Positions 5,444-44,547 of a stretch of DNA of 64,000 nt are shown one piece after another (the stretch's first letter is position 1; each line of letters starts with the position of its first letter). A model generated the notes under the pieces. It made no database searches, was not told where the DNA came from, and worked only from the letters and a program-made list of their open reading frames with translations. This DNA comes from Candidatus Hikarchaeia archaeon HikBin5 (GTDB lineage: Archaea; Halobacteriota; Halobacteria; Halobacteriales; Hikarchaeaceae). The translations under genes and the position numbers were made by a program. The stretch lies in contig WTZU01000002.1 in assembly GCA_009889625.1 (NCBI GenBank), positions 12,472 through 76,471 of the forward strand, given 5' to 3'.

Positions 5444-6106
5444 TTAAATGGGAGAAAGGTAGCTTTCCCATAGATCAAGCGTAATGGAATCTGATTCGGT
5501 GTAAGAAGTCCCCCATAATTCCTGTGCTGAAAATCTGACTTTGTACACTGGTTCGGCCCGGGGAGAACCTTCTACAATAGAATCGGGAAGGGGGAAAGTT
5601 CCGAAAATTTGTTCTATCGTTCCAATTCGTTTCTGTGCATAGGATGGAGACCGGGAATGGCCAAATTTATTGTTGGGGTTTACAAGTACATTATCACCTA
5701 CTTTGAAATTTGGTTTTGTAGATTTTACATCTTTGAGATTGCTTTTTTTGAAAGATTGCAATACTTTTTCAAGTAGATCGGGAATGGATTTATTTTCGAT
5801 AGAGATATCATTCGTGGAATAGAGCTCTATGCGGGAGTTGATCTCAGATTGGGTTAGAATTCCTTTTTCCACCAATAACATTTCAATGCAATCGAGCCAT
5901 TTTTCAAAATAGCTAAGTTGGAGATATCTAGAAGGAGAAATTCGTTCTGCTGCATGTCGTTTTTCATCGACATTGCAAATGCCATGTAATTGAATTATTT
6001 TAGATATTGCAAATGTATCTTTTTCCCATTGTTCGTGGAAGATGGCAGAATCCATTTTGATTGGACCAAATCCATGTGTCCCACCTAAATCATGTATGGC
6101 TTTCAT
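5444..6106 (-). CDS. Nitrile hydratase beta subunit-like protein (no alpha subunit nearby)
   Basis: N-terminus MKAIHDLGGTHGFGPI...FHEQWE, central LVEKGILTQSE, and C-terminal YKVRFSAQELWG...DLWESYLSP all follow the nitrile hydratase beta pattern. Confidence 0.75.
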   Translation of the reverse strand: MKAIHDLGGTHGFGPIKMDSAIFHEQWEKDTFAISKIIQLHGICNVDEKRHAAERISPSRYLQLSYFEKWLDCIEMLLVEKGILTQSEINSRIELYSTNDISIENKSIPDLLEKVLQSFKKSNLKDVKSTKPNFKVGDNVLVNPNNKFGHSRSPSYAQKRIGTIEQIFGTFPLPDSIVEGSPRAEPVYKVRFSAQELWGTSYTESDSITLDLWESYLSPI

Positions 6107-9004: not shown

Positions 9005-9715
9005 ATGTGTGACGATAAATCATATAGAACAGATGGTGGAAAGGGCATTACCGTCCAGCAAGCAGTGGATGCCGCGTATGAAAAAACATTTAGCGGGAAA
9101 AGAACGTATGTGACAGCTTTAGAAACAGATAGATATGACTATAAAGATGTATGGGAGAGCCTCAGAGATCCAGAGAAAAGATTGATCAGAGGGAGTGAAA
9201 TACCAATGAAAGCCAAATCCTCACCCCCACAAGGGTCTCAAACATGGGGGAAGCAATTTGTGAGGCCATGGTCGGGGATTACTCAATCGTTGCAAATGCA
9301 CTACAGAGTACTTGCCCCAGAGGGACATGGAAAAAAGCACTATCATCAGAATGAGGCTATGTTGTACATTCTAGAAGGAGAAGGGTATGAGATTCATGAT
9401 GGGGAAGAATATAAATGGGAAGCAGGAGATCTTGCAATTATAAGAGGAGGAACAGTTCATCGTCACTACAGTTCAGACCCAGAAAATCTATGCAAAGGTT
9501 TGATTATAAAACCAAAGGCAGTATGTCAATTTTTACATCTTTTATACCAAGGATTTGCAGAAAACTATCCTTCGGAGAGGTGTCGTGTGGATTCTGAATG
9601 GACACCCAATGAATTGTGGACAGATAAAAAGCAATTGTACCATGCAGGAGACTTACTAGATACAATATCACACAAAGAAGATGCACAAAAAGAGCGCGTT
9701 AAGGAGAGGATATAA
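9005..9715 (+). CDS. Cupin-domain protein, large subunit of split-cupin pair, copy A
   Basis: Cupin motif KKHYHQNEAMLYILEGEGYEIHDGEEYKWEAGDLAIIRGGTVHRHY. It is a paralog of 32593..33378. Confidence 0.7.
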   Translation: MCDDKSYRTDGGKGITVQQAVDAAYEKTFSGKRTYVTALETDRYDYKDVWESLRDPEKRLIRGSEIPMKAKSSPPQGSQTWGKQFVRPWSGITQSLQMHYRVLAPEGHGKKHYHQNEAMLYILEGEGYEIHDGEEYKWEAGDLAIIRGGTVHRHYSSDPENLCKGLIIKPKAVCQFLHLLYQGFAENYPSERCRVDSEWTPNELWTDKKQLYHAGDLLDTISHKEDAQKERVKERI

Positions 9716-9716
9716 T

Positions 9717-10319
9717 ATGGCAGATAAATACATACACAAAGAAGAAAGGCTATCCTACAATAAAGGTGAAAAGACTGCTTCATACTATGGTGAGGCAATA
9801 GAAACGTCTAAACAAAACCCCATTGCCCAACATGGAAGTGGGCCTGATAAGAAGGTCATCAAGCCAGAAGAAATGCCTTGGGAATATTCTCAACAGGGAA
9901 TATTGAAACATGTAATAAATGAGAAATTAGCAAAGGAATTGGGTGCTTCTGTGAGAGGGACAGACATATACATGCAAGTCATACCCCCAGGAGGCAGATC
10001 TGGGAAACACCGACATATGAGTGAGGAATTAATTTTTGTGATAGAAGGGGAAGGATATGATCTACATTGGGACCCTACACTGCATGTAGGACAAGATGTT
10101 GCTCATTGGACATATCCAGAAGAAGCACTTAGATTTGATTGGATACCAGAAGATGTCATATATATACCGACAAATACAGTTCATCAACATTTTAATAAAA
10201 GTCAAGAAAAGCCTGCAAGAATTCTATGTTGTCAAAATAGACTTTACAATACACTTGGTTATGGAATGGAAGATCTAGAACAATTTGAAAACTCGCCCGA
10301 ATATGAGGAAAATAATTAA
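9717..10319 (+). CDS. Cupin-domain protein, small subunit of split-cupin pair, copy A (putative metal-dependent dioxygenase-like)
   Basis: Canonical cupin motif 1 GGRSGKHRHMSEELIFVIEGEG and motif 2 IYIPTNTVHQHFN. The ATG lies 1 nt after the upstream stop. It is a paralog of 31904..32587. Confidence 0.75.
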   Translation: MADKYIHKEERLSYNKGEKTASYYGEAIETSKQNPIAQHGSGPDKKVIKPEEMPWEYSQQGILKHVINEKLAKELGASVRGTDIYMQVIPPGGRSGKHRHMSEELIFVIEGEGYDLHWDPTLHVGQDVAHWTYPEEALRFDWIPEDVIYIPTNTVHQHFNKSQEKPARILCCQNRLYNTLGYGMEDLEQFENSPEYEENN

Positions 10320-10681
10320 GATTCGATATAAATTAAATCGTTTTCGATGAGAAGTTTATAGGGCTTTAAGTTCATATCAGGAAAGGATAGGCATTTTCCA
10401 GATGGAATGTGATATTGGAGTTGGTGCCAGGGGCAGCTGACAACTTCTCCTTGGTAATCCCATGTTAAGTTGAAATCATTTTCGCGCTTCCCATAAAGAG
10501 TTCCTTCGTGAATTGCACCGTTGTCACATAGAGGTCCATATTGATGGGGGCAAACATTGGGGATTGCATGGAAATTTCCTTCAATGTTGAACAAGCCTAT
10601 TTCGACCCGCCCTATCCTAACTATTTTATGCCCCCCAATAGGAACATCTTTTGTTTTAGCTACTAGGTGTTTTTTTGCCAT
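10316..10681 (-). CDS. Rieske [2Fe-2S] domain protein (NirD/ferredoxin-like)
   Basis: CPHQYGPLC ... CPWHQLQY Rieske ligand motifs. It starts 5 nt downstream of the amidohydrolase stop. Confidence 0.8.
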   Translation of the reverse strand: MAKKHLVAKTKDVPIGGHKIVRIGRVEIGLFNIEGNFHAIPNVCPHQYGPLCDNGAIHEGTLYGKRENDFNLTWDYQGEVVSCPWHQLQYHIPSGKCLSFPDMNLKPYKLLIENDLIYIES

Positions 10682-10686
10682 GGTGG

Positions 10687-11790
10687 TTAAATACTATAAA
10701 GTTTTTTGGCGTTTAAACCCCAGATATTTTCTTTGGCTTCTTTGGATATGGGCATAGATTGAATTGCACCCGCATCGTCCCAATCATGGTGAGGGATATC
10801 TGTTGCAAATACAGCAGTTTCCTCCCCATTCACTTGTTCGAGGAGAACAGCTAGCTCAGAGGGATTTTCTGGTACTTCAATCGGGTGAGTTCCAATATAA
10901 AATTCATCTATGTACTCAGATGGTCTTTTTTCTAGAAGGGGTGCTTGTTCCCTATGTTGCATGTATTCACGGTCGAGGCGGTACGCAGTCATGGGCATCC
11001 AGGACAGACCAGCTTCAAGAAAAACGAATTTTAGTTCGGGGTAAAGTACAGGGATTCCTTCATTTACTATGTGCATACAGTTTACTACAAGAGATAATTC
11101 ATGGGCGAGTGTGTGTCTTGTCAAATAAGGAAGTTTATGCATATTGAATGGGAATTCGGGGAAATCCACGCCTACGCTATGGAATGCAATTGGTAATGAA
11201 TGCTCAGTTGCTGCTTCCCAAATGGGACGATAGGTGGAATGGCCATATGTTCTATCTAGGCCACCAATTGGTAGAAAAATGGCTTTCATTTGTTTCTCAT
11301 TTGCCACTCTATCAATTTCTTCAGCTGCAGCATGAGGATCGTGTGGAGCTACCGCGATGGCACCTATTAGGGCATCGCTTTGGTCTAGAAATCGGTCGAT
11401 TAAGTAGTCATTGTATGCACTAGCGAAAGCATTGGCATACTCTACGGATTGTAATATGGGGATTTTAAGAGCATTTTCTCCAAAGAGGACTCCAATGTCG
11501 ACATGATATTTTTTTAATTCCCGTTCGGTGTTTTCTCCATTAGTTAAATCGGGACGTTTAGCATGTTTGGATGCAGGAGAATTTCTAAAGATATCCCCCA
11601 ATTTCATTCCAGGCATATAGCCAGGTGTATCACGGTATCGGTAGGATTTCTCATAGCGTCGGACGGCGTCGTCATAAGGAGGTTCAAAATACTTTGCCAT
11701 CAAACCAGGAGGTTCCTCTATATGGACGTCATTATCTACAACGAAGACATCTTCTAGGGGGCTTTTAGAATTGGATTCGGATTTGGCCAT
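10687..11790 (-). CDS. Amidohydrolase-2 (ACMSD/decarboxylase-like) family protein
   Basis: N-terminal VVDNDVHIEEP (DxHxH-type metal site), 367 aa, and a TIM-barrel hydrolase-like pattern with later conserved His/Asp residues (FHSVGV, ATDIPHHD). Confidence 0.7.
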   Translation of the reverse strand: MAKSESNSKSPLEDVFVVDNDVHIEEPPGLMAKYFEPPYDDAVRRYEKSYRYRDTPGYMPGMKLGDIFRNSPASKHAKRPDLTNGENTERELKKYHVDIGVLFGENALKIPILQSVEYANAFASAYNDYLIDRFLDQSDALIGAIAVAPHDPHAAAEEIDRVANEKQMKAIFLPIGGLDRTYGHSTYRPIWEAATEHSLPIAFHSVGVDFPEFPFNMHKLPYLTRHTLAHELSLVVNCMHIVNEGIPVLYPELKFVFLEAGLSWMPMTAYRLDREYMQHREQAPLLEKRPSEYIDEFYIGTHPIEVPENPSELAVLLEQVNGEETAVFATDIPHHDWDDAGAIQSMPISKEAKENIWGLNAKKLYSI

Positions 11791-12525: not shown

Positions 12526-13008
12526 ATGGCGTCGAACCGAAATCACATGTTTGAATCGGGTGAATTTGTTTCGAAGAATGTAGAACCAATTGCAGACGTC
12601 CAGATACAACCAAATGGTGTTGATCTTACTCTTTGTTGTGTATTTATCCAGACAGGAAAGGGGCGCATAGAGAAAGGAGGGAAAGAAATTGGAGATCGTG
12701 AAGAAGTAGAAGCCAAGAATGGCAAGTATAAATTAAAACCAGGAGGGTACATAATCAGATATTTTGAAACTGTGAGTATTCCGGAAGGGAATGTTGGATT
12801 TATCTACCCACGTTCTTCGATGCTTCGGAATTCATGCATGGTTAATACGGCAGTATGGGATTCAGGATATAAAGGAAAGGGAGAGAGCTTTTTGCAAGTT
12901 TACAGAGAAATTGAGATAGAAAAAGGAGCCAGAGTTGCACAAATAATTTTTGCCCGCGGGGAAAATTCGGGCGTATATGCAGGAGGATATCAAGGAGAAA
13001 ATTTATAA
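12526..13008 (+). CDS. dut: dUTP diphosphatase, archaeal DCD/DUT family
   Basis: About 160 aa from the ATG at 12526. QPNGVDLTL and IYPRSSMLRNSCMVNTAVWDSGYKGKG match the dCTP deaminase/dUTPase fold, and the short length fits Dut. Confidence 0.75.
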   Translation: MASNRNHMFESGEFVSKNVEPIADVQIQPNGVDLTLCCVFIQTGKGRIEKGGKEIGDREEVEAKNGKYKLKPGGYIIRYFETVSIPEGNVGFIYPRSSMLRNSCMVNTAVWDSGYKGKGESFLQVYREIEIEKGARVAQIIFARGENSGVYAGGYQGENL

Positions 13009-15417
13009 TTCCGTCAATCCAGCTTCGACGAGGCGAGGGAGGACATGCCGGGGGGTCAATGGACCCTCGAAAAATCGAATTCCTGTTGCGTCATAAACCG
13101 CGTTTGCAACCGCTGCCGGAACAGGGACAGTAGAACATTCACCAGCTCCCTTTTGGCCATGGGAAGTGGAGGGATCTGGATTCTCAAGCTCGTCTATCTT
13201 AGTGATCATAGGAACGTCTGCAGCAGTGGGGAGGTGATAATCAACCAGAGATCCGTTTTCTAGGTTCCCACTTGAATCATATACCATTTCCTCAAGTAAT
13301 ATTTCACCTAGTCCGTGTATAATCCCACCTTGAGTTTGTCCTTCCAGAAGTTTTGGATTGATCAATTTTCCGACATCTTCACATATTGCTGCATCAACTA
13401 CTTGGACTACACCAGTTCCGGGATCAATCTCCACAATGACCCCAAATGCCCCAAATGTATATCCATGGGATATATTTCCGGTTCCGGTTTCAGGGTCTAA
13501 AAATTCTGCCTCGAGTGTTTCAAACTTGGCTGCACCTACCAGAGACACACCTTTTCTGAAAATTTTTGGACGGTCTTCTGGGTCGCCAAATGTAGCTTTG
13601 TGTGCTAGTTCTTTCATAGTCATTCCATTTTCTGGATTTCCTTTTTCGTGAATTAATCCATTCACGATTTCTACATCTTCATCGTTTATTTTTAAGAGCC
13701 ATGCAGAAAGTGAAACGATGGTTTGTTTTAAATTTTCTGCGGCCATTGCAGCTGAAGTTCCACCCATAATAGTTCCCCTATCCGCCCAGACCCCCATATC
13801 ATCTGGAGTTATATCAGAATCCCCTATAACAGGAGTTACATCTTCTGTAGAGATTCCAAGGACGTCGGCAACGATCTGGCAAAGTGCAGTTTCTGTCCCT
13901 TGTCCTATACTGCAAATGCCAGAAAAGACGGTGACTTGCCCATAATGGTTCATCTGAACTATCGCTGAGGAATAATCAGCCCCTTTTGCACTTTTATTTC
14001 CCGCACGTTTCATAATTGTTGCCATGCCAATTCCGCGAAGTTTACCATCATTGCGTTTGGCATTATTACGTTCTTTATCCCATTCGAGACGGTCGCTGAC
14101 TATCCGGAGACACTCTGGCATGTCAGAATTTACCCATTTGAGACCAGAAGGTGTTCGGAGAGGCATGTCTTCTATTTTAGGAACGTTTTTGAGTCGGAGC
14201 TCGACAGGATCCATCCCCAATTCTTCGGCAGCCATGTCAACTAGTTGTTCTCGAACATAAGTGAATTGTGGATCGCCATACCCCCTTACTGCAGATCCTG
14301 GCATTACGTTGGTATACACGACAGATCCTTTGATGCGTTGATTGGGGATAGGGTAAGGACCAGAACAGGTAGCCATCGCGGAAAATGCTATTGTTTTTCC
14401 GAAGCTCCCATATGCACCGGTGTTTTGGAACATTTCGATGTCCATTCCAACGATGGTACCATCTTTTTTCAAACCTAATTTTGCATCGAATGTCTCAGGA
14501 TGTCTGCCCCGACCTGCTTTTAATTCTTCTATCCTATCGAGAACTATGTTAATTGGTTTTCCAGTCTCCATGGCGAGTACTGACGCACATATTTCATGAG
14601 AAAATAGCTCTAGTTTGACGCCGAAGCCACCTCCAATGTCTGGCATTTTACAGACTACCTGCTCTACTTCTAGACCGAAAATGGTGTCGGCAACATACTT
14701 CCTCAATAGATGTGGCACTTGATTTGAAGACCACAGGGTTAATTTGGGAGCAGCTCGGTCATAATGGGCAACGCAACCGTGGGGCTCTAGGGGAGAGGGA
14801 TTTGTTTTGTGTGTTTTGAAAGATCCTTCCACGATTAGATCTGCTTCTGATAAAGGGTCCTCGTAATTGCCGACGTGAACGTGGCATGTATTTAGCAGAT
14901 TTCCTTTGACTTCGCAAACGGGGTCATCACTTAAAGTGGGGTGGAGAACAGGAGCACCTTCGGCCAATGCATCTTTAATAGTAACAACCGCAGGTAGTTT
15001 TTCATATTCGACATGGACTAAATCTGCTGCTTCGATGGCTATATTTTTAGTTTTTGCCAATACAATGGCAACTTCATCTCCGACGTAACGGACTTTATCG
15101 GATGCTAGAGCCTCTTCATCGGGGCGGGTTAGACTAGGATGGCCGAATGGTTTTACATATGGATCAATATCCTCAGCAGTCCAAACCAACTCAACTCCTG
15201 GGAATGCTTTTGCCTCACTTGTATCGATTGAAATTATCCGTGCGTGGGCATGTGGGCTTCTTACAAATCTTGCATATAGCATCCCAGGGAGATGGAGATC
15301 GTCGATGAATTGTCCTTGTCCTGTGACTAATTTTTTCCCTAGTTTGCTATTGACACGTTTCCCTATCTCACGGCTTTTGAGAATTTCTTCATTGGATAAT
15401 ATGGCTTGGCTACTCAT
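13003..15417 (-). CDS. Molybdopterin-dependent hydroxylase large subunit (xanthine dehydrogenase/aldehyde oxidase/CoxL family)
   Basis: 804 aa. It has an a/b-hammerhead N-terminus (LPGMLYARFVRSPHAHARI), SAVRGYGDPQF, and C-terminal molybdopterin-binding domains. Confidence 0.85.
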   Translation of the reverse strand: MSSQAILSNEEILKSREIGKRVNSKLGKKLVTGQGQFIDDLHLPGMLYARFVRSPHAHARIISIDTSEAKAFPGVELVWTAEDIDPYVKPFGHPSLTRPDEEALASDKVRYVGDEVAIVLAKTKNIAIEAADLVHVEYEKLPAVVTIKDALAEGAPVLHPTLSDDPVCEVKGNLLNTCHVHVGNYEDPLSEADLIVEGSFKTHKTNPSPLEPHGCVAHYDRAAPKLTLWSSNQVPHLLRKYVADTIFGLEVEQVVCKMPDIGGGFGVKLELFSHEICASVLAMETGKPINIVLDRIEELKAGRGRHPETFDAKLGLKKDGTIVGMDIEMFQNTGAYGSFGKTIAFSAMATCSGPYPIPNQRIKGSVVYTNVMPGSAVRGYGDPQFTYVREQLVDMAAEELGMDPVELRLKNVPKIEDMPLRTPSGLKWVNSDMPECLRIVSDRLEWDKERNNAKRNDGKLRGIGMATIMKRAGNKSAKGADYSSAIVQMNHYGQVTVFSGICSIGQGTETALCQIVADVLGISTEDVTPVIGDSDITPDDMGVWADRGTIMGGTSAAMAAENLKQTIVSLSAWLLKINDEDVEIVNGLIHEKGNPENGMTMKELAHKATFGDPEDRPKIFRKGVSLVGAAKFETLEAEFLDPETGTGNISHGYTFGAFGVIVEIDPGTGVVQVVDAAICEDVGKLINPKLLEGQTQGGIIHGLGEILLEEMVYDSSGNLENGSLVDYHLPTAADVPMITKIDELENPDPSTSHGQKGAGECSTVPVPAAVANAVYDATGIRFFEGPLTPRHVLPRLVEAGLTEL

Positions 15418-30081: not shown

Positions 30082-30735
30082 GTGAACGAAGCCATAGAAT
30101 ATGCATCTATTGGCGGGCCATTGGTTGGAGTTATTTTAATTGGTTTTTTAATAGGAGTAGAACATACATTTGAGGCAGATCATATAATAGCGGTTTCCAC
30201 ACTATTGAGTCGAGAGTCAGAGAAAAGTCCGTGGAAGGTTGGAAGTGCATGGGGGATTGGGCATTCAGTGACAACAATGGTAATTGGGGCACTATTGCTA
30301 TTATTAAATATCAAATTACCAGGAAAAATATATGAAGTCGGGGAAATTGCAGTGGGAATCACTCTAATATATTTGGGATTAAAACATTTAGTGTTTAAAG
30401 AGGTAAGAAATGCCCATAAGCATACGCATGGAGGGAGATTTGGCCACCTAAACCCAATGCAAAAGTGGTCTGATTGGAGTTTAATGTCCATATCAGTGGG
30501 TGCGATCCATGGTTTTGCAGGGAGTGGATTTTTAATTTTATTACTGGTAACCACATCGGAAATGATAGAGGGAATTCTATTTTTGAGTTCATTCTGCGCA
30601 TCAATCATAATAATAATGGGGATTGTGAGTCAAATGTGGGGAAAAATCCAAAATATTCATCAAAAAATGGTAGGAAATATTGCAGGTAGTGCAAGTATAG
30701 TGGCAGGAATGTTGCTCATAATAGGATATATTTAG
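30082..30735 (+). CDS. Metal (Ni/Co)-transporter-like membrane protein
   Basis: GTG start. It has an HTFEADHIIAV (HxxxxDH) motif, GIGHS, a His-rich loop NAHKHTHGGRFGH, a second-half GAIHGFAGSG, and about 6 TM segments. Confidence 0.5.
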   Translation: MNEAIEYASIGGPLVGVILIGFLIGVEHTFEADHIIAVSTLLSRESEKSPWKVGSAWGIGHSVTTMVIGALLLLLNIKLPGKIYEVGEIAVGITLIYLGLKHLVFKEVRNAHKHTHGGRFGHLNPMQKWSDWSLMSISVGAIHGFAGSGFLILLLVTTSEMIEGILFLSSFCASIIIIMGIVSQMWGKIQNIHQKMVGNIAGSASIVAGMLLIIGYI

Positions 30736-31783: not shown

Positions 31784-31857
31784 GGGTCGGTGGTCTAGTT
31801 GGTTAGGACGTCGCATTCACATTGCGGAGATCGCCAGTTCGAATCTGGCTCGACCCA
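31784..31857 (+). tRNA. tRNA-Val (anticodon CAC)
   Basis: Hand-folded cloverleaf: acceptor GGGTCGG/TCGACCC, D stem GTCT/GGAC, anticodon stem TCGCA/TGCGG with loop TTCACAT, T arm GCCAG-TTCGAAT-CTGGC, discriminator A. No CCA is encoded. Confidence 0.9.
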
Positions 31858-31862: not shown

Positions 31863-31903
31863 GGTAGAAATTGAAAATATAGAGAGAAAATATCAAGCAA
31901 AAA

Positions 31904-32587
31904 TTATTCTTTGAATTCGGGTGCGTTTTCAAATTGTTCTAGATCGTTGAAGCCGAGTCCTAGGTGATTATAGATGCGTGCATTGCAGCAAAGTAGTCTT
32001 GCTGGTCGGTCTTCACTGGCATTTACATGCTGATGTGCAGTATTAGTCGGGATGAAGATTACATCGTTTGTTTCCCATAGGAATTTTTGAGGTTCTTTTG
32101 GCCATTCCCATATAACTTTGTCCCTCATGACAGCGGTTGGGTCCCAATGGAGATCATATCCCTCTCCATCTAAGACAAATACTAGTTCTTCGCTCATATG
32201 CCGGTGTTTACCTGATTTTCCTCCAGGAGGTATAACCTGCATATACAGATCGGTGTTGACTGCGCCAGTGGGGCCAAGATCCCTTTCCATTTTCTCATTG
32301 AGAAGCCATTTTATTTTACCTTGCGGAGAATCCTCCCATGGCATTTCTTCTGGTTTAATGATTTTATGAAGAGGTCCACGGGGGCCATGTTGAGAAAGTG
32401 GATTCTTTTTGGAATCGTCAAGGAATTCTTGGTAATGAGAAGTAGTAAGAGTTCCACGTTCCCATTCCTCCCGTTCATCCATGTGGATATAGTCGTCTGG
32501 AACCATTTCCTGGGTTCTTTTTCTATGACGAGGTATATGGTCGAATTCGTAATTATGAGGATCTTCAAATTCGGTGTTTTCAGACAT
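31904..32587 (-). CDS. Cupin-domain protein, small subunit of split-cupin pair, copy B
   Basis: GGKSGKHRHMSEELVFVLDGEGYDLHWDP and IFIPTNTAHQHVN. By eye it is roughly 60% identical to 9717..10319 over the core. Confidence 0.75.
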   Translation of the reverse strand: MSENTEFEDPHNYEFDHIPRHRKRTQEMVPDDYIHMDEREEWERGTLTTSHYQEFLDDSKKNPLSQHGPRGPLHKIIKPEEMPWEDSPQGKIKWLLNEKMERDLGPTGAVNTDLYMQVIPPGGKSGKHRHMSEELVFVLDGEGYDLHWDPTAVMRDKVIWEWPKEPQKFLWETNDVIFIPTNTAHQHVNASEDRPARLLCCNARIYNHLGLGFNDLEQFENAPEFKE

Positions 32588-32592
32588 GATTA

Positions 32593-33378
32593 TTATACAC
32601 CAGACCTCTGAGTTGCGGATTTAACTGCTGCCTCTTCCTTGGAGAGCATCTGTCGCATCTGTGCATATTGATCATGGTCCTCTTTGGAATATTCTTCTCG
32701 TCCAACATTCCAATCAAATGGTGGAACCCAATTGGGATCTTTTGCCCGGTCTCCAGGTGTATGTCTAACAGTTCCTTGATATACAAGATGTAAGAAATTA
32801 TAGATGGGGAGAGAGTTGTAAACTAAAAGGCGGCAGGGTTTATCGGGATCAACAGAATAATGTTCGTGGACACATCCACCATGAATCACGATTAAATCCC
32901 CCGCCTCCCAAATATATTCCTCTCCGTCGTGGATTTCATATCCTTTACCTTCCAATACATACATCATCGCTTCATTTTGATGAGAATGTTTTTTATCGTC
33001 CGCTTCAGGTGCAAGTACACGTTCCATAAGAGACATACTTTGAGTCCTTCCTTTCCAAGGGCGAACATAGGATCTTCCCCATGCTTTTGAACCCTCAAGT
33101 AGGGAATTTTCGGTTTTAGACTTGAGTGGGATTTCAGATCCTTTTACAATTCGTTTCGCAGGGTCCCTCAGTGCAGCCCAAACTTCACGGTTGTCAAAAT
33201 GGCGCTCTGCCATTTCTTGTATGAAAATCCTACGATTGCTGTATACCTTGTCTGCAGGGCAATCTACCGCCTGAATAGTTGTTGTGGCCCCGCCGTCTGC
33301 TCTTACTTCTAATAGACCTCTGTGCCGCTTCCCGGCATGATCCGGGTCAGAGGGATGTTTGTGGTTATTTATTGGCAT
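32593..33378 (-). CDS. Cupin-domain protein, large subunit of split-cupin pair, copy B
   Basis: KKHSHQNEAMMYVLEGKGYEIHDGEEYIWEAGDLIVIHGGCVHEHY. It is a paralog of 9005..9715 and keeps the same order relative to the small subunit. Confidence 0.7.
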   Translation of the reverse strand: MPINNHKHPSDPDHAGKRHRGLLEVRADGGATTTIQAVDCPADKVYSNRRIFIQEMAERHFDNREVWAALRDPAKRIVKGSEIPLKSKTENSLLEGSKAWGRSYVRPWKGRTQSMSLMERVLAPEADDKKHSHQNEAMMYVLEGKGYEIHDGEEYIWEAGDLIVIHGGCVHEHYSVDPDKPCRLLVYNSLPIYNFLHLVYQGTVRHTPGDRAKDPNWVPPFDWNVGREEYSKEDHDQYAQMRQMLSKEEAAVKSATQRSGV

Positions 33379-33417: not shown

Positions 33418-34629
33418 TTAAAGTTTTATTTTAAAAATATGTTTTATTTTAACTAAAACCAACAAGAAAATGTGAATGAATTCGCGCCAGACATAGAGGA
33501 TTAGTTGGCCAATTTCCCAAATTGGATTGAATTCTTGGGAACTGTCAGGAATAGTTTGTTTCTTTTGGTTCAATCGAATTGAATCCATTGAACCTTCTAA
33601 GGTATTGTTGTCGTTTTTTCCAAGTGAGGATGTTGAACTATTGGGTGATGAACTAGGGGGTTTTGATTCCAATTCTGCTTTTAATTCTAAAATTCGGTGT
33701 TCTAAATCTTTGATCCGGGAATTTTTAGAAGTTAATTCAGTTCTCAGAGTATCTGGATCCAATTCGGGAGGAGGGCCTTCAATGGATCGTAATTGTTCTA
33801 TGAGCTCATTTTGGTCAGATTTAAAATTTGGACGGATGGGATCTGCTTCGTGTGGAGTTGCACCTTCATCAAAGGTTTCTTTTTGCTTTAATAAAATTCG
33901 TCTAGTAGGTTCCCAATCTGTTGCTAAAAATGCTTCTCCAGTTTCGAGAGTGGAAATTTCATTTGCATAATTAGTTCCAAGTGTTTGACTAACTGCTTTA
34001 AAGTCTGTCGCCCATGTAAATCGATGCCAAACGGACCAGTTGCATTGAGTGATAAAATCTTTATCAACAGCAGAAGGCCTTTGGGATATTCCACAGATTC
34101 CGAGTCCGCGTTTTCTTCCTCTTTTGGCGATCCTAATGATATTTTGTGCTAACTTATCGACTCCTCCTTGTTGTGGAATGAATTCGTGTATCTCTTCTAT
34201 TATGATTAAAAACTGTTTTCTATGTTCTTTTTCTTTGTGAAACAGCAAAGTGACTACCTCGTTGATAATCGATTTTGCTTGGTCTGTTTCAAAAGTGGAC
34301 ACATCTAGAATGACAGGTGCCCCCTCAAGTAGAGCGTGGTCGGTGATTAAATCTACTCTATCCAATGTCAATTCTACATCAGACTCCTGTTGTTGACCCA
34401 TATGAATGAGTTCCTTGAATTGCTCTTTCAAGCCACGATATTCACCATCGGTATCGATGATCAAAAGTGGGCATCGATTCTTAAGGAGTTCTTCAATTAC
34501 CACACTAGCTGTGTTAGATTTCCCAGATCCAGATTTGCCTGTAATAAATCCACGTCCAGTGAGAATGGAAGTGATGGGAAGGGTGATACCATCCTCAGTT
34601 ATTGTGATAGTTGTGGAATTTTGGGGCAT
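33418..34629 (-). CDS. HerA/FtsK-like P-loop ATPase (DUF87-type) with coiled-coil and C-terminal hydrophobic anchor
   Basis: Walker A GKSGSGKSNT and Walker B FLIIIEEIHEF. A coiled-coil (IKDLEHRILELKAELES) is followed by a Ser/Pro-rich linker and the terminal hydrophobic helix IGQLILYVWREFIHIFLLVLV. Confidence 0.7.
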   Translation of the reverse strand: MPQNSTTITITEDGITLPITSILTGRGFITGKSGSGKSNTASVVIEELLKNRCPLLIIDTDGEYRGLKEQFKELIHMGQQQESDVELTLDRVDLITDHALLEGAPVILDVSTFETDQAKSIINEVVTLLFHKEKEHRKQFLIIIEEIHEFIPQQGGVDKLAQNIIRIAKRGRKRGLGICGISQRPSAVDKDFITQCNWSVWHRFTWATDFKAVSQTLGTNYANEISTLETGEAFLATDWEPTRRILLKQKETFDEGATPHEADPIRPNFKSDQNELIEQLRSIEGPPPELDPDTLRTELTSKNSRIKDLEHRILELKAELESKPPSSSPNSSTSSLGKNDNNTLEGSMDSIRLNQKKQTIPDSSQEFNPIWEIGQLILYVWREFIHIFLLVLVKIKHIFKIKL

Positions 34630-34697
34630 TAAATAGGAAGTTTTTGGGCGCCATGTATATAGCCTTCCCTCTACTGGAATATAAGAGAGAATAAATT

Positions 34698-35213
34698 ATG
34701 AAAGGTTTCAAAAAGAATAGGAGAATGGGATCAAAAGGTGGGAAAATAAAGATTCCAACAGGAAGTATAGAAATTTCAAAAGGAATTAGACAGATAGTAA
34801 GGTCAATTGGCTTATTAGGAGCAAGTAGATTTGGAAAGCTTGGATTTCAGATAGGGCTATTTACTGTTATTTTTGCATTGGCAGCAGTGGGATTGGTGGA
34901 ATTGGTAGAAGGAAGGGCCGTGGGAAGTGACCAGAGGTTAGGGTTTTATGTTTTGTTTAGTTCAATATTATTTATATTTACTATTTACTCGATAGAAAAG
35001 GCAAAGCGGAGGGATGGGTTTGATGTAATGAAAGTGGTGATTGCAATTACAATCGTTGGATTCATTATAGCATCGCTTTCAGGAGAGGGATTGATCAGAG
35101 TTGTTCAAGGGGCAGGATATACATCTCAAACATATGTCTATTTAATCACAGGAGGCTTGGTTTTTTCAGGAGTGAGTTATTGGGCAATACGGCACTGGAA
35201 AGAATATACATAA
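34698..35213 (+). CDS. Hypothetical 4-TM membrane protein
   Basis: 171 aa with a basic N-terminus and four hydrophobic segments. It is divergent from the ATPase across a 68-bp spacer. Confidence 0.5.
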   Translation: MKGFKKNRRMGSKGGKIKIPTGSIEISKGIRQIVRSIGLLGASRFGKLGFQIGLFTVIFALAAVGLVELVEGRAVGSDQRLGFYVLFSSILFIFTIYSIEKAKRRDGFDVMKVVIAITIVGFIIASLSGEGLIRVVQGAGYTSQTYVYLITGGLVFSGVSYWAIRHWKEYT

Positions 35214-35221
35214 AGGGGGCA

Positions 35222-35809
35222 CTACCATTGAGTTCCTATTTTTTGCCGTGCCCGCACATACTCGGAATGGGTATTCCAACGAATTGATGTGTTGACGTGT
35301 TCGACCGTATAAGGCGATCCACACTTGCGACAACGATAGTAATTGAAAGGGTGAGTTACTGTTTTAGATGCACGGTGTCGAGTGGTTTCCCAATGGCAAT
35401 TTTCATTTGTGCAAATTAAATAGAATCGCGGGGGACAAAATTCATCGCATCGGAGGGGTGCATCTAATTGCTGGGCTTTTTGTTTGAATAAAGAACCATG
35501 AGAGGTTGAACCATATGTTTGATATTCCCATACGTGGATTAATTCGTGGCGTATGATTCCCATAAATTTTTCCCAGCCATAAGCTTGGAAAGCTTTCCAT
35601 GTGAGAGAAATTATAATATCAGGAGAACCGTGTGTGAATTTGCAACAAGCTGCTCGTTTTGTCGCGTGGCGAGAGATAGTCCAATGAATGACAGAGAGGT
35701 CAATAGGTAATTGGATTGTTTTGGAATATTCAATTGCTTGATCTATTAATTCTGAAGGTGTATTTGGGCAGGAGTTGAATGAACAGTCTATGATCGACCC
35801 CATTCCCAT
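35222..35809 (-). CDS. SprT-like zinc metalloprotease with C-terminal zinc ribbon
   Basis: HELIH (HExxH) inside an SprT-like N-domain. C-terminal CTNENC...CRKCG zinc ribbon. Confidence 0.75.
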   Translation of the reverse strand: MGMGSIIDCSFNSCPNTPSELIDQAIEYSKTIQLPIDLSVIHWTISRHATKRAACCKFTHGSPDIIISLTWKAFQAYGWEKFMGIIRHELIHVWEYQTYGSTSHGSLFKQKAQQLDAPLRCDEFCPPRFYLICTNENCHWETTRHRASKTVTHPFNYYRCRKCGSPYTVEHVNTSIRWNTHSEYVRARQKIGTQW

Positions 35810-40425: not shown

Positions 40426-41412
40426 ATGGTATCAGGTGAACAAATAAGTAAAAGTAAGAACATACAGCAGCAAACTGGGAAGACATTCTATTTCGCTACG
40501 TTACTATTGCCAAAGAGAGTCAGGTACGCGACGCATATTTTATATGCATTTTTTAGGATTGCAGATGAAATTGTAGACACCTCGGAAAACAAGGAGTCCT
40601 ATGTGAAGATTGAGCAAATTGATCAGATACAAAAAGCTGTTTTAGGAGAATCTTTAACAGATGAACCATCGTTAAAGGCATTTGAGGAATTGCGCAGGCG
40701 GTATGAGATCCCAACGGGAGAGATAATAGCATTTTTAGATGCTATGCGTATGGATATTTCTAAAAATAGATATGAAACTTTCAGTGAGGTTGAAGAATAT
40801 ATGCGAGGGTCTGCAGTTACAGTTGCGAATATGATGGTTTCTATCATGAAGATTAAAGAAACGGAGAAGATTATTGAAACTGCTGCTGCTTTAGGAAAAG
40901 CATTTCAATTAACCAATTTCCTTAGAGATGTTAGAGAAGACATTATAGAATATAATCGGTCGTATATGCCAAAAGAAACGTTAGACAAATATGGTGTTGA
41001 ATACAAACATATAGAGAATTTAGAATTTTCAAACGAGTTTGCCAAAGTTATGGAAGAAGAGATTAGTAGGGCCGAGGATTTTTATAGAAAAGGGATAGAA
41101 GGGATTGAACATTTGCCAAATGACTGTCAATTTGCAGTACTATTGGCATCAGTTTTGTATGCAGACCATCATCGATTGATTGTAAACCGAAGATATGATG
41201 TTTTGACTCACCGTTCGACGTTGAATATGCAAGATAAAATTATTTGTTTAGTTAAAACTTGGTGGCACTTAAAAGTGACAAAAGATCCCAAGGCTACATT
41301 TTATTTAACGACCGGAATGTTAGATGACAGGGGGGAAAAATACAAAACTGTGCAAAAATCACTTCGACGTGCGTTTAGTATGAAAAAATTGTTGGTTAAT
41401 TTTCAAAAATGA
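40426..41412 (+). CDS. crtB: Phytoene synthase
   Basis: Squalene/phytoene synthase motifs: YAFFRIADEIVD (first Asp-rich box), YMRGSA, and QLTNFLRDVRED (second box). Confidence 0.85.
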   Translation: MVSGEQISKSKNIQQQTGKTFYFATLLLPKRVRYATHILYAFFRIADEIVDTSENKESYVKIEQIDQIQKAVLGESLTDEPSLKAFEELRRRYEIPTGEIIAFLDAMRMDISKNRYETFSEVEEYMRGSAVTVANMMVSIMKIKETEKIIETAAALGKAFQLTNFLRDVREDIIEYNRSYMPKETLDKYGVEYKHIENLEFSNEFAKVMEEEISRAEDFYRKGIEGIEHLPNDCQFAVLLASVLYADHHRLIVNRRYDVLTHRSTLNMQDKIICLVKTWWHLKVTKDPKATFYLTTGMLDDRGEKYKTVQKSLRRAFSMKKLLVNFQK

Positions 41413-42911
41413 CGAAGGAGAATATGCTCGATAAGTCCGCGATCATAATTGGGGCAGGGATTGGAGGGCTATCTTGTGCATGTTTCTTGGCACAACAGGG
41501 GATTCAAGTTACCGTGGTGGAAAAAAATGAACAGATAGGAGGGAGAGCTTCTATTTTGGAGAAGGATGGGTTTAAATTCGACATGGGGCCATCATGGTAC
41601 CTCATGCCAGATGTATTTGAAAGATTCTTTGGATTTTTTGGAAGGAAACCAGAAGATTATTATGAATTGATTCGTCTGGATCCACATTATAGGATCTTTT
41701 TTAAAGATCAAAAAAACGTAGATATAGTGGCAGATTTGGAGCAAAATAAAATCCTATTTGAAGGGATGGAAAGAGGAGCAGGAGATGCACTTGTAAGATA
41801 TCTAGATAACTCGAAAATGACTTATGAATTGGGGATGCAAAAATTTGTATACAAAGACAGGCCTCGGTTGAGAGATTATTTGAGTTTAGATGTGTTGCTA
41901 AATGCCCATAAAATAAGTCTAGTTCGCTCTATGCAAAATCATGTGAACAACTATTTCTCTAACAAAAAGCTCCAACAAATTGTACAATATACATTAGTAT
42001 TCTTAGGAGGATCTCCAAAAAATACTCCCGCATTATATAATTTAATGAGTCACGTTGATTTTAATTTGGGAGTATATTATCCAGAGGGGGGCATTGGCAG
42101 GGTTATTTCATCTATCGCCAAAATGGGGGAAGAATTGGGTGTCGAATATAAGCTAGGTTTTGAGGTAGATTCAATCGAAGAGGAAGGGGGATTATTTGCG
42201 GTGAGGAGTAAAAATGCAGAGATAATAGAAGCAAACATAGTAGTTAGTAATGCCGATTATGGCCATACGGAGCAAGTGTTATTGCCAGAGGACAAAAGAC
42301 AATTTGATGATAAATATTGGAAATCTCGAACATATGCCCCATCTGCATTTTTAATTTACTTAGGGATAGAAGGTGAAATAGACCCATTAATTCATCATAA
42401 TCTGGTTTTACCAATAGACTGGGAGGGTCATTTTGAGGAAATATTCACGGACCCGGCATGGCCGACAGATCCTGCCTATTACATATGCGCGCCTTCAGAC
42501 ACTGACGATTCTGTTGCTCCAAAAGGCCATAGTAATCTATTCATCTTAGTTCCCATATCGGTTGATGTAGAAGATGAAGAACATATGAGGCAAAAATATA
42601 GAGACAAAATATTGGCAGATATTGCAGAAAATGTTGGTGTAGATTTAAGGAATAAAATAGTACTAGAAGAGCATTTCTCGGTGTCAGATTTTGCTAGGCG
42701 GTATAACAGTAGCAAGGGGACTGCATTGGGATTGGCACATACGTTAAAGCAAACAGGCCCGATTAGGCCAGATAACCGTTCGAGGAAATTAAAAGGAATG
42801 TATTTCACAGGAGGATATACCAGGCCCGGTATTGGAGTTCCTATGTGCCTGATAAGTGGGGAGCACACAGCAGAAGCCATCATTAAAGATATTAAAAAAG
42901 AGACAAAATGA
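41409..42911 (+). CDS. crtI: Phytoene desaturase family protein (CrtI or CrtD)
   Basis: IIGAGIGGLSCACFLAQQGIQVTVVEKNEQIGGR dinucleotide fold, C-terminal FTGGYTRPGIGVPM, and an ATGA overlap with crtB. Confidence 0.85.
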   Translation: MTKENMLDKSAIIIGAGIGGLSCACFLAQQGIQVTVVEKNEQIGGRASILEKDGFKFDMGPSWYLMPDVFERFFGFFGRKPEDYYELIRLDPHYRIFFKDQKNVDIVADLEQNKILFEGMERGAGDALVRYLDNSKMTYELGMQKFVYKDRPRLRDYLSLDVLLNAHKISLVRSMQNHVNNYFSNKKLQQIVQYTLVFLGGSPKNTPALYNLMSHVDFNLGVYYPEGGIGRVISSIAKMGEELGVEYKLGFEVDSIEEEGGLFAVRSKNAEIIEANIVVSNADYGHTEQVLLPEDKRQFDDKYWKSRTYAPSAFLIYLGIEGEIDPLIHHNLVLPIDWEGHFEEIFTDPAWPTDPAYYICAPSDTDDSVAPKGHSNLFILVPISVDVEDEEHMRQKYRDKILADIAENVGVDLRNKIVLEEHFSVSDFARRYNSSKGTALGLAHTLKQTGPIRPDNRSRKLKGMYFTGGYTRPGIGVPMCLISGEHTAEAIIKDIKKETK

Positions 42912-43744
42912 GAGGGGGCAAATATATTAAATTGGTTGAGGCATCCAGACCTAGATTTTGGCTTTATCTTGCAGGACCAGCATTAGTTGGTGCCACGTAT
43001 GGAGCAGAGCACGTCCAAGAATTAGTGAGGTTGGATGTTGCGCTCATCATACTATACTTTCTGATCCCGGCTAATTTTCTAGTTTATGGGATTAACGATA
43101 TATTTGATTCTAAGATTGATCAAAAGAATCCAAAAAAGAAAACCAAAGAGATTCGATATAAAGGGGGAAGAAAATTGCCCACTTTGGTCATAATTAGTGC
43201 AATATTAGGGATAGCATTGGGAGGAATTCTCACTGTAAATGCAATTCCATGGATGATTGGTTTTCTCTTTTTAAGTTGGGCATATAGTGCACCTCCCTTT
43301 AGATTTAAAACAAAGCCATTTCTGGATTCTTGTTCAAATATATTATATATATTTCCAGGAATCGTCGGGTACATAGTTGTCTCAGGTTCGATACCCCCTT
43401 TGCTTGCAATAGGAGGAGGTAGTTTGTGGGCGATGGCAATGCACACGTTCTCTGCCATTCCAGATATTGGACCAGATAAAAAATCAGGAATTAAAACATT
43501 GGCTACATCATTGGGCCAAAGTAAAACTTTAGCATATTGTGGGAGCTGTTGGTTTGCTTCTTCGATTTTGTTTGCATTAGTGGATGTCCGACTAGGGATA
43601 TTTCTATCCTCATATTTAGCGATATTGGGAATAATAGTATTGGGAAAAATAGAAGTTGAAGTTGCATATTGGTGGTATCCAAAAATCAATACGATAATTG
43701 GATTTGTTTTAGTAATAGGAGGGATTTGGAGGATCGTAATTTGA
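42908..43744 (+). CDS. UbiA-family prenyltransferase (lycopene elongase LyeJ-like)
   Basis: NDIFDSKIDQKN Asp-rich motif and multiple TM helices. ATGA overlap with crtI. Its position between the desaturase and a CruF-like gene matches the haloarchaeal arrangement. Confidence 0.7.
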   Translation: MRGGKYIKLVEASRPRFWLYLAGPALVGATYGAEHVQELVRLDVALIILYFLIPANFLVYGINDIFDSKIDQKNPKKKTKEIRYKGGRKLPTLVIISAILGIALGGILTVNAIPWMIGFLFLSWAYSAPPFRFKTKPFLDSCSNILYIFPGIVGYIVVSGSIPPLLAIGGGSLWAMAMHTFSAIPDIGPDKKSGIKTLATSLGQSKTLAYCGSCWFASSILFALVDVRLGIFLSSYLAILGIIVLGKIEVEVAYWWYPKINTIIGFVLVIGGIWRIVI

Positions 43745-44547
43745 TAAATAGATTGGAAATATTTGTACGAGAGAATAGGTTATTGTTGGCACTGGTGATG
43801 CCAATTATGGGTGCTGTGTTGCTAGTTGCTAGTAAAGAGATGATACTCCCACCGTGGCTCTCATTTAACCCTTACATTGTTTTGATAGGAACTGCACTGA
43901 TGAGATTGCCGTTAATTGTTGCAATCCTACCTCTGATAAATAGGAAAAATGGAATTTTGTTACTGTTATTAACGGGGTACGTGTATTTTATCGAATACAT
44001 AGGTATAAGATATGGATGGCCATATGGAAATTTCCAATATTTAGTAGAATTGGGACCAATGATTTCTGACATTCCAATGGCACTTCCACTTTTCTTCATT
44101 CCATTAGTGCTGAATGGGTATTTGTTGACATTGTTAATTGTAAATAAATATCCAATAAATCAAAGATTGATAATTCCAATTTCAATCGTGGTAATCATCC
44201 TGATAGATTTAGTATTGGATCCGGCCGCGGTGAGTCTTGGTTTTTGGAGTTATGGAAATGGGGGAGAATTCTATGGAGTCCCATATACAAATTATCAGGG
44301 GTGGTTGCTCAGTGGGGGGATATCAGTGTTGGTAGTAAGCCGTGTGTTTAATAGAAAAAAGCTTCTTGCACGCATTGAAGAGTGTGAATTTGGACTAGAT
44401 GACATGATCAGTTTTGTTTTATTATGGGGATTGGTGAATACATATCATAATAATTGGATTCCAACTTTTATTGTGATAATGCTCATAGCGGGATTATGGT
44501 GGGTGGAGAGAATCGATATTAAGAATATTTTAAATAGAAATAAATGA
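43741..44547 (+). CDS. Carotenoid biosynthesis membrane protein (CruF/DUF422-like hydratase)
   Basis: Polytopic membrane protein with LDPAAVSLGFWSY......YGVPYTNYQGW. The start is uncertain: TTG 43741 overlaps the upstream stop, ATG 43798 is an alternative, and the ORF maximum begins at 43669. Confidence 0.6.
   Translation: MINRLEIFVRENRLLLALVMPIMGAVLLVASKEMILPPWLSFNPYIVLIGTALMRLPLIVAILPLINRKNGILLLLLTGYVYFIEYIGIRYGWPYGNFQYLVELGPMISDIPMALPLFFIPLVLNGYLLTLLIVNKYPINQRLIIPISIVVIILIDLVLDPAAVSLGFWSYGNGGEFYGVPYTNYQGWLLSGGISVLVVSRVFNRKKLLARIEECEFGLDDMISFVLLWGLVNTYHNNWIPTFIVIMLIAGLWWVERIDIKNILNRNK

Follow-up and report, generated by a model that had tools for sequence, protein, structure and literature searches.

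The 64,000-nucleotide stretch analysed here (the window), from Candidatus Hikarchaeia archaeon HikBin5, carries two operons, A and B, each of which encodes a large and a small protein with a single cupin domain. Based on our comparisons, each pair is probably a bicupin split over two genes, and the two operons are probably ancient constituents of Marine Group IV (Hikarchaeia). In the model that we propose, the large subunit would correspond to the N-terminal barrel and the small subunit to the C-terminal barrel of related single-chain bicupins, and the two products of each operon would assemble into a heteromeric split-bicupin metalloenzyme. Operons A and B would have diverged before the sub-lineages of the clade that we term haloarchaeal-type separated, and from then on both would have been passed down vertically within Marine Group IV, with strong purifying selection acting on them. 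The enzyme may be an O2-dependent, non-heme-metal enzyme of oxidative catabolism (Fe, possibly Ni or Co) of the broad gentisate- or acireductone-dioxygenase type, and copy A may share a pathway with the amidohydrolase-fold dinuclear monooxygenase and the Rieske ferredoxin encoded next to it. The duplication itself is old and ordinary; the interest lies in the gene family.

Two-barrel cupin enzymes are normally single chains. We identified at least 35 natural fusion proteins of 325-356 aa (P0077, P0172 and 33 more), each with a large-like N-terminal half, 30-48% identical to large subunits, and a small-like C-terminal half, 27-52% identical to small subunits. Since the fusions join the two kinds of barrel in this way, the pair appears to be a bicupin divided over two genes. 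Both metal motifs are invariant in the fusions, HGHQNEA...HxH in the N-terminal half and H-x-H-x3-E...HQH in the C-terminal half. A MAFFT alignment of fusions, large and small subunits together (A2) was discarded because it placed the small subunits on the N-terminal half, and the structure prediction was built on an alignment of the fusions only (A3). The resulting AlphaFold2 model of P0077 contains two cupin barrels and a disordered linker at residues 140-195 (predicted local distance difference test score, pLDDT, 75.6; predicted template modelling score, pTM, 0.77), and a Foldseek search with this model returned bicupins only.

The gene pair is also kept together. In a census of 88 non-redundant loci with 93 large-subunit genes, a same-strand small-subunit gene adjoins 79; of the 14 without such a partner, six are located at the end of a contig, which puts adjacency at about 91% of pairs where it can be assessed. 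The order is large-to-small in 73 pairs and small-to-large in six, for example in the Saccharospirillum loci. Across 80 pairs, the pairwise distances among large subunits and among small subunits are correlated with r = 0.95, a value matched by none of 500 label permutations. The two genes are separated by 1-5 nt or overlap by 4 nt, which suggests translational coupling. Furthermore, the trees of the large and small subunits are concordant, from which we conclude that the two genes are inherited together. The original prediction, made from the window alone, had argued from the retention of both subunits in both copies that the pair is the functional unit; the adjacency, the co-evolution, the fusions and the concordant trees bear this out, and the pair as a functional and inherited unit appears well supported. 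The adjacency, the co-evolution and the short spacers lend indirect support to the proposed physical heteromer of large and small subunits.

The family is a broad one. Database relatives of the small subunit number 652, from bacteria and archaea, and those of the large subunit 22 by word search and 125 with a profile; representative clusters of the large subunit number 51, 355 and 986 at E-value thresholds of 1e-30, 1e-10 and 1e-3, respectively. On these comparisons, the large subunit is the more divergent of the two. The presence of two large-plus-small pairs is not peculiar to the window: a contig of Archaeoglobi JdFR-42 (locus L020) has two pairs 3 kb apart on opposite strands, and a Haloferacaceae genome bin (L015, L028) has two pairs from different clades of the family. 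Multiple paralogous pairs are thus normal for the family. There is no sign of plasmid-borne spread, as a tblastn search of 72,556 plasmids with a bacterial small subunit gave distant, partial matches only, at no more than 41% identity. Our full-text literature searches found no description of this split or heteromeric cupin family and, for Hikarchaeia, nothing relevant on cupins or gentisate; likewise, in the libraries searched we found neither a characterised member nor a curated family model nor a closely matching solved structure.

Both barrels keep what by sequence is a full metal site, with three histidines in the large subunit and three histidines and one glutamate in the small. In copy B the large-subunit motif is HSHQNE...H171xH173, and H131, H133, H171 and H173 are invariant among large subunits in the family alignment. 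The small-subunit motif of copy B is H128-R-H130-x2-E133-E134...H185, and H128, H130, E133/E134 and H185 are invariant among small subunits, along with many polar residues. The AlphaFold2 model of the copy B small subunit (pLDDT 83.9) is an all-beta barrel, as are the barrels of the P0077 model, and its nearest solved fold by Foldseek is auxin-binding protein 1 (ABP1), with a template modelling (TM) score of 0.63 on the target and 24% identity. By sequence, the best matches in the PDB are gentisate 1,2-dioxygenase (GDO) 3BU7 (E 2e-12 with the large-subunit profile and 3e-13 with the small-subunit profile), salicylate 1,2-dioxygenase (SDO), acireductone dioxygenase and, for the small subunit, ABP1. 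Gentisate dioxygenase and ABP1 are remote matches only.

The four open reading frames (ORFs) of the original prediction are present in the ORF list at the coordinates given in Table 1, and the two copies do lie on opposite strands about 22 kb apart. Both copies have the large-then-small order that was claimed for them; the claimed 5-nt spacer, however, is found in copy B (TAA-TAATC-ATG), whereas in copy A the spacer is 1 nt. Translation of the small subunit of copy A probably does not start at the upstream ATG at 9681. P0042, a 212-aa gene call from Tara Oceans, is 100% identical to all 200 residues of that subunit, and in the gene call at the more distant locus L090 the small subunit begins 1 nt past the large-subunit stop. 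All four proteins consist of a single Cupin_2 domain (PF07883), scoring 45.6-47.6 bits against a Pfam gathering cut-off of 27.2; the highest of these scores belongs to the copy B large subunit, whose N-terminus is moderately His-rich. Within one copy, the large and the small subunit are also remotely paralogous to each other, with 27% identity (E 4e-15).

Between the copies, BLASTP gives 49% protein identity over 211 aa for the large subunits (E 1e-75) and 58% over 200 aa for the small subunits (E 6e-88), so the by-eye estimates of about 50% and 60% were accurate and the similarity is far above chance. The two loci are true paralogs, alike well beyond the generic cupin motifs. At the DNA level, the large-subunit genes are 52% and the small-subunit genes 62% identical, with third codon positions at 33-40%. 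The blastn program finds one stretch of 505 nt at 67% and one of 123 nt at 72%, both within coding sequence, and a nucleotide comparison of the flanks found no similarity beyond the gene borders. As the similarity is confined to the coding regions, it reflects protein conservation alone. The long DNA-level similarity noted previously holds only in part, although the best 60-nt window (82%) does fall on the HMSEEL...GYDLHWD region. The proportion of synonymous differences between the copies (pS) is 0.80-0.86, which is saturated, so that a ratio of nonsynonymous to synonymous substitution rates (dN/dS) is not computable for A against B; we took dN/dS from comparisons of orthologs instead.

Such orthologs are found throughout Marine Group IV. 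In a one-genome-per-species scan with the large-subunit alignment, copy B was recovered at 90-93% protein identity in five metagenome-assembled genomes and copy A in four; these genomes carry the labels Marine Group IV archaeon (HikBin1, HikBin4), Halobacteriales archaeon or euryarchaeote. Two contigs, WTZQ01000006.1 of HikBin1 and CAZQZO010000009.1, each hold A and B together, in opposite orientations and separated by about 22 kb, which matches the window. With the cobalamin adenosyltransferase gene that neighbours copy B as the seed, a metagenome scan recovered more divergent relatives, with adenosyltransferase identities of 66-75%. Every contig of these that reaches far enough (L094, L095, L097, L098, L100) has the order adenosyltransferase, tRNA-Val, small subunit, large subunit, HerA-like ATPase, and their cupin proteins, at 82-93% identity to those of the window, are better conserved than the neighbours. 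The large-subunit orthologs of copy B in Marine Group IV contigs are 89-93% identical with a dN/dS of 0.027, the corresponding small-subunit values being 0.025-0.045, and the large-subunit orthologs of copy A (L017-L019, L090) are 85-93% identical with a dN/dS of 0.03-0.05. For all four cupin genes, dN/dS lies at 0.025-0.05, compared with 0.09-0.15 for the adenosyltransferase and HerA-like genes. On this substitution pattern, both copies are functional and under strong purifying selection, and their joint retention under such selection suggests that the two enzymes differ in substrate or role and are not redundant.

In the trees, both copies fall within one haloarchaeal-type clade (92-99% bootstrap), in which a Haloferacaceae genome bin and several metagenome contigs from soil and sediment are also found. 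Bootstrap support is 100% for the A lineage and 100% (large) and 96% (small) for the B lineage, while A and B as exclusive sisters receive 0% (large) and 10% (small). Indeed, the large subunit of copy A is 67-75% identical to P0016/P0018 and 58-62% to a third sub-clade, compared with 49% to copy B, and that of copy B is 64-71% identical to P0002-P0004. The saturated synonymous sites and the lack of exclusive sisterhood exclude a recent in-genome duplication, and since the two pairs share a clade and large and small subunits are co-inherited within it, neither do the trees place them in unrelated groups; of the choice between duplication and acquisition that the original prediction wished to see settled by phylogeny, the recent form of duplication has fallen. 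These sequence data are best explained by a duplication long ago, or an equally old exchange between Halobacteria-related archaea, after which inheritance within Marine Group IV was vertical. The context of copy A, with an amidohydrolase-fold oxygenase and a Rieske ferredoxin, is one that recurs elsewhere in the clade.

Two other histories deserve consideration. A recent duplication within this genome, of A into B or of B into A, perhaps with gene conversion keeping the two alike, would account for the same gene order and similar spacing 22 kb apart in one genome, but it is refuted by the synonymous saturation and the trees; given also the unlike flanks, the closer relatives that each copy has elsewhere and the presence of both copies in divergent Marine Group IV genomes, we find it scarcely credible. 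The other history starts from the tRNA gene. It had been proposed that copy B begins 47 nt from a tRNA, a classic insertion hotspot. The distance is correct, but it separates the 3' end of tRNA-Val from position 31904, the stop-codon end of the small-subunit gene; operon B and the tRNA are convergent, 3' to 3', and it is the 3' end of the operon that faces the tRNA. Copy B could have been acquired horizontally, integrated at the tRNA-Val 3' end, maybe together with the HerA/VirB4-like ATPase and the SprT-like protein that adjoin it, and later domesticated. This would agree with its position directly downstream of the tRNA 3' end, with the weak CedD/VirB4-type matches of the ATPase, with the different context of a B-lineage relative (L091), with a GC content at third codon positions (GC3) of 0.355-0.359 against a window mean of 0.314 +/- 0.026 (about 1.6 standard deviations above), and with haloarchaea that have tRNA-Val near an adenosyltransferase gene and no cupin pair there. 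However, no integrase turned up when the larger ORFs at 21-46 kb were scanned against Pfam, the last 24 nt of tRNA-Val occur once in the 64 kb with up to three mismatches allowed, and no suitable island-boundary repeat was found in 31.7-45 kb. The sole repeat, of 20 nt (31874-31893 and 42593-42612, 10.7 kb off), was rejected as a boundary: it is AT-rich, lies outside the tRNA, has its second copy in the phytoene-desaturase-type gene of a carotenoid cluster and would enclose housekeeping genes. In addition, GC content is flat across the window (0.41 at copy B, about 0.40 overall), the codon-usage distance of copy B falls in the range seen for other short genes, no gene of the neighbourhood is better conserved than the cupin genes, and the genes farther along are housekeeping genes (AP endonuclease, succinyl-CoA ligase, carotenoid synthesis). 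The tRNA-Val adjacency is found in nine of nine related contigs that cover the site (L010, L011, L012, L014, L094, L095, L097, L098, L100), one of them with an adenosyltransferase just 66% identical. No empty tRNA-Val site was found in relatives, more distant haloarchaea being without synteny altogether. We therefore regard acquisition at the tRNA, even as a very old event, as quite unlikely; the proposed hotspot insertion is not supported, and the tRNA-Val is a conserved neighbour with no evidence of insertion. An adjoining tRNA alone should not count as a sign of mobility.

As to function, the large and small proteins may be independent, homo-oligomeric single-cupin enzymes that are co-regulated and catalyse two steps of a pathway. 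Each has a complete, separately conserved metal site and many invariant polar residues, homotetrameric single-cupin ring-cleaving dioxygenases such as 5-nitrosalicylate dioxygenase do exist (PMC10306065), and at L049, L070, L079 and L080 a large gene stands without a small one despite room for it. Against this, the fusions recur in one N-to-C order, the subunits co-evolve tightly, and the genes are mostly adjacent with minimal spacers or overlaps, so we believe two separate enzymes to be unlikely. Alternatively, the proteins could be small-molecule-binding or regulatory cupins and not enzymes, to which the Pfam matches to AraC_binding (E 7e-6, large subunit) and Auxin_BP (E 2e-8, small subunit) and the ABP1-like fold of the small subunit would lend themselves. 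Given that neither protein has a DNA-binding domain, that no metal ligand varies among the archaeal and bacterial members, and that the genes lie in catabolic clusters with transporters and oxygenases, we consider this very unlikely.

The split-bicupin enzyme that we favour has its own difficulties, and the following observations weigh against it or against the activity that we assign to it. No NCBIfam model covers either subunit; the best scores, 13.9-23.7 bits for TIGR02272 (cut-off 442) and 14.6-31.3 bits for NF049978 (cut-off 650), fall short of these gentisate and 5-aminosalicylate dioxygenase models. The structure matches are to generic bicupins and cupins at TM scores of about 0.5-0.6, and the dioxygenases rank no higher among them than oxalate decarboxylase and seed storage proteins. 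Among the Foldseek matches of the fusion model, oxalate decarboxylase, vicilins, MncA and the salicylate and gentisate dioxygenases are about equal. Since the matches of both models are generic, no function can be transferred from them, and dioxygenase, decarboxylase, isomerase and plain binding all remain candidate activities. The position of the catalytic Arg127 of SDO is occupied by Met139 in the copy B large subunit, a near-invariant Met. Copy B is without the catabolic neighbours described below, and the link to amidohydrolase-fold oxygenases rests on three lineages only. Finally, the trees are neighbour-joining trees on about 180 trimmed columns. Taking both sides together, we view the pair as probably a bicupin metalloenzyme, for which an O2-dependent dioxygenase is the likeliest type, though at somewhat less than even odds.

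Table 1. Coordinates of the cupin genes and of other features of the window.
Feature	Coordinates	Strand	Remarks
Copy A large subunit	9005..9715	plus	ORF, 236 aa
Copy A small subunit	9717..10319	plus	200 aa counted from ATG at 9717
Copy B large subunit	32593..33378	minus	ORF, 261 aa; corresponds to N-terminal cupin domain of fused bicupins
Copy B small subunit	31904..32587	minus	ORF, 227 aa; corresponds to C-terminal cupin domain of fused bicupins
Rieske [2Fe-2S] ferredoxin	10316..10681	minus	PF00355; 121 aa; directly downstream of the ARO-like gene, 5-nt gap
Amidohydro_2 protein, related to amidohydrolase-related dinuclear oxygenases (AROs)	10687..11790	minus	PF04909; 367 aa
NiCoT-like short membrane protein	30082..30735	plus	217 aa; weak NicO/NicT matches; HX4DH motif (EHTFEADH), His-rich loop
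tRNA-Val(CAC)	31784..31857	plus	ARAGORN; sole tRNA found in the window
HerA/DUF87-type ATPase	33418..34629	minus	directly upstream of copy B; weak CedD/VirB4-type matches, hydrophobic C-terminus
Block upstream of copy B	33418-35809		HerA/DUF87 ATPase, 171-aa ORF, SprT-like protein; conserved in Marine Group IV contigs
Nitrile hydratase beta-subunit gene	5444-6106	minus	TIGR03888, E 3e-59, above cut-off
Carotenoid cluster	40426-44547	plus	phytoene synthase, phytoene-desaturase-type oxidase, UbiA prenyltransferase, Caroten_synth protein

The genes around copy A are found again in L017-L019 and also in L090, which is more distant; the gene order is nitrile-hydratase-beta-like, Zn-dependent alcohol dehydrogenase, ornithine-cyclodeaminase-like, SUI1, large subunit, small subunit, Rieske, Amidohydro_2, GNAT acetyltransferase and xanthine-dehydrogenase-like. 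The ARO-like and Rieske genes are convergent with copy A. In the PDB, the ARO-like protein matches 8SM7 (E 4e-48), as well as 8SM8, 8SM6, 8SM9 and AibH (6M1W, E 6e-27, and 8FUL), which are entries for AROs (PMC10811679; PMC7782822). AROs were discovered through their adjacency to small Rieske ferredoxins (PMC10811679) and have been reported in halophilic archaea (PMC13154177); the ARO papers (PMC10811679, PMC7782822, PMC13154177) make no mention of cupins. The signature used there to find candidate AROs, a small Rieske protein (<250 aa) no more than three genes away from a PF04909 protein (PMC10811679), is present in the window, and by sequence the two genes (10316-11790) are a candidate ARO monooxygenase system in a Marine Group IV archaeon, in which the Rieske ferredoxin is the presumed electron donor; no reductase partner gene was identified for them. 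An ARO-like gene lies near the cupin pair in L001, L003, L017-L019 and L090, and an oxygenase-plus-Rieske module is found within a few kb of the pair in L001, where it occurs twice, and in L003. As a separate observation, the nitrile hydratase beta-subunit gene of the window has no alpha-subunit gene alongside and may encode an orphan or accessory beta-like protein; the Zn-dependent alcohol dehydrogenase gene follows it, and the arrangement in L090 is identical.

Elsewhere in the haloarchaeal-type clade, the recurrent neighbours of the pair include 3-hydroxyisobutyrate-dehydrogenase-type reductases, MFS and ABC transporters, thiamine-diphosphate enzymes and class II aldolase-type proteins. The bacterial loci have another module, for which neighbours within about 10 kb were counted by targeted tblastn, as single-linkage clustering of ORFs was uninformative owing to spurious long ORFs in GC-rich loci. 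These counts gave a EutA-like (reactivase-type) ATPase in 36 loci, a 371-aa third bicupin in 32, and a LigXa-type Rieske oxygenase and TctA in 13 each. Transporters, either TctABC or of an ABC type similar to that for 2-aminoethylphosphonate, also belong to this module, as do IclR regulators; the module was seen in L005, L174, L175 and about 30 other loci.

Copy B has neighbours of a different kind. The NiCoT-like gene lies 1.2 kb from it, beside the cobalamin adenosyltransferase gene, which offers an alternative reason for its position. In L001, a NiCoT-like homolog (12573-13229 of that locus; 34% identity, E 7e-28) is situated between the cupin pair and an ARO gene, and full-length NicO genes are found in the Firmicute cupin clusters L174 and L175 (Paenibacillus, Alicyclobacillus). 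Only tentatively would we count the NiCoT-like protein as a member of the cupin system. Haloarchaeal-type large subunits (alignment A1) often start with Met-Cys and have His-rich N-terminal tails, for example HGHGHAHDHGHSHGHDH; the start of the copy B large subunit (33316-33378) encodes MPINNHKHPSDPDHAGKRHRG, while the copy A large subunit has no such tail. The tails may serve in metal capture and, taken with the NiCoT-type neighbours, suggest use of nickel or cobalt. On the other side of copy B, the gap between the HerA-like and large-subunit genes is 39 nt and holds a GAGG motif, and the HerA-like gene, which is kept at this position in L095, L097, L098 and L100, may be co-transcribed with copy B. 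A scan for sigma-70 promoters and intrinsic terminators gave hits at background level, and such a scan does not apply to an archaeon. Carotenoid clusters of the type that the window carries make bacterioruberin in haloarchaea, and its presence fits the kinship of Marine Group IV with Halobacteria.

A wider reading is that of an uncharacterised family of bicupins with two metal sites, obligate heteromers and maybe Ni/Co-dependent, that act in an unrecognised oxidative pathway; we regard this as doubtful. Such a family would range over Halobacteria-related archaea, Archaeoglobi, Proteobacteria, Firmicutes, Actinobacteria and Chloroflexi. Pointers to the metal would be the His-rich tails on large subunits, together with NiCoT-type transporters, which are present in four independent gene neighbourhoods. 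The partners would be the amidohydrolase-fold dinuclear monooxygenase and Rieske ferredoxin in archaea, and the EutA-like ATPase, the third bicupin and the Rieske oxygenase in bacteria. The substrate would be an abundant small metabolite, and Marine Group IV would have two specialised enzyme versions.

For the divided bicupin that we propose, the practical consequence is one of annotation: both genes should be called and annotated as one enzyme. The two-barrel family is widespread, in split and in fused form, with both metal sites conserved. Orphan oxygenase systems, the recently described AROs among them, recur as its neighbours, which provides a handle for assigning substrates to the cupins and the oxygenases alike. 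This is relevant, too, to what Marine Group IV archaea oxidise in the deep sea.

Among known systems, the gentisate and salicylate dioxygenases (class III ring-cleaving enzymes) share with the pair a bicupin architecture, once large and small subunits are combined, and a three-His HxH...H motif in the N-terminal-equivalent barrel. In a HMMER alignment to SDO, H131, H133 and H171 align with the three iron ligands of SDO/GDO, and the invariant H173, two residues past the third ligand, takes the position of SDO His162. In SDO numbering, Arg127 contacts the substrate carboxylate and His162 acts in a proton relay, and the single-cupin 5-nitrosalicylate dioxygenase is also without both residues (PMC10306065). 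As in GDOsp of Silicibacter pomeroyi (3BU7), the metal ligands are kept in both barrels (PMC10306065). In contrast to these enzymes, the pair is encoded by two genes rather than as one chain, and the likeness is limited to the cupin core. L003 additionally encodes a single-chain gentisate-dioxygenase-like bicupin (571-1647 of that locus; TIGR02272 E 4e-65, 220 bits, below the cut-off of 442) 4.4 kb from its split pair, and the split pair is thus not simply the gentisate dioxygenase of that organism. The neighbouring genes of copy A resemble the AROs AibH1H2/AibG and SfbO, in that the PF04909 gene is directly followed by a small Rieske gene; this likeness concerns the neighbours and not the cupins.

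For the small subunit, the HRH-x2-EE...H motif aligns with the Zn ligands of ABP1, and acireductone dioxygenase, a cupin with three histidines and one glutamate, is among the profile matches of the large subunit. Identity to ABP1 and acireductone dioxygenase is low, and some 80 additional residues at the N-terminus set the small subunit apart from them. The one known ring-cleaving dioxygenase with two different cupin subunits is type II hydroquinone 1,2-dioxygenase (PnpCD, HapCD or HqdAB; PMC10306065), an alpha2-beta2 heterotetramer that, like our pair, has two cupin-containing subunits encoded by adjacent genes (PMC10306065; PMC3222310). It is the only known heteromeric cupin dioxygenase, and it is unrelated to our pair in sequence, its chains being absent from the 37 PDB matches at E <= 10 with the large-subunit profile and from the top 50 Foldseek matches. 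The gene order of hydroquinone dioxygenase is small-to-large, the opposite of this pair, and its subunits are of 19 and 38 kDa, compared with about 27-30 and 23-26 kDa here. Hydroquinone dioxygenase has a single active metal site, formed by two histidines plus a glutamate, in one of its subunits (PMC10306065), whereas in the pair described here the sites of both subunits are intact.

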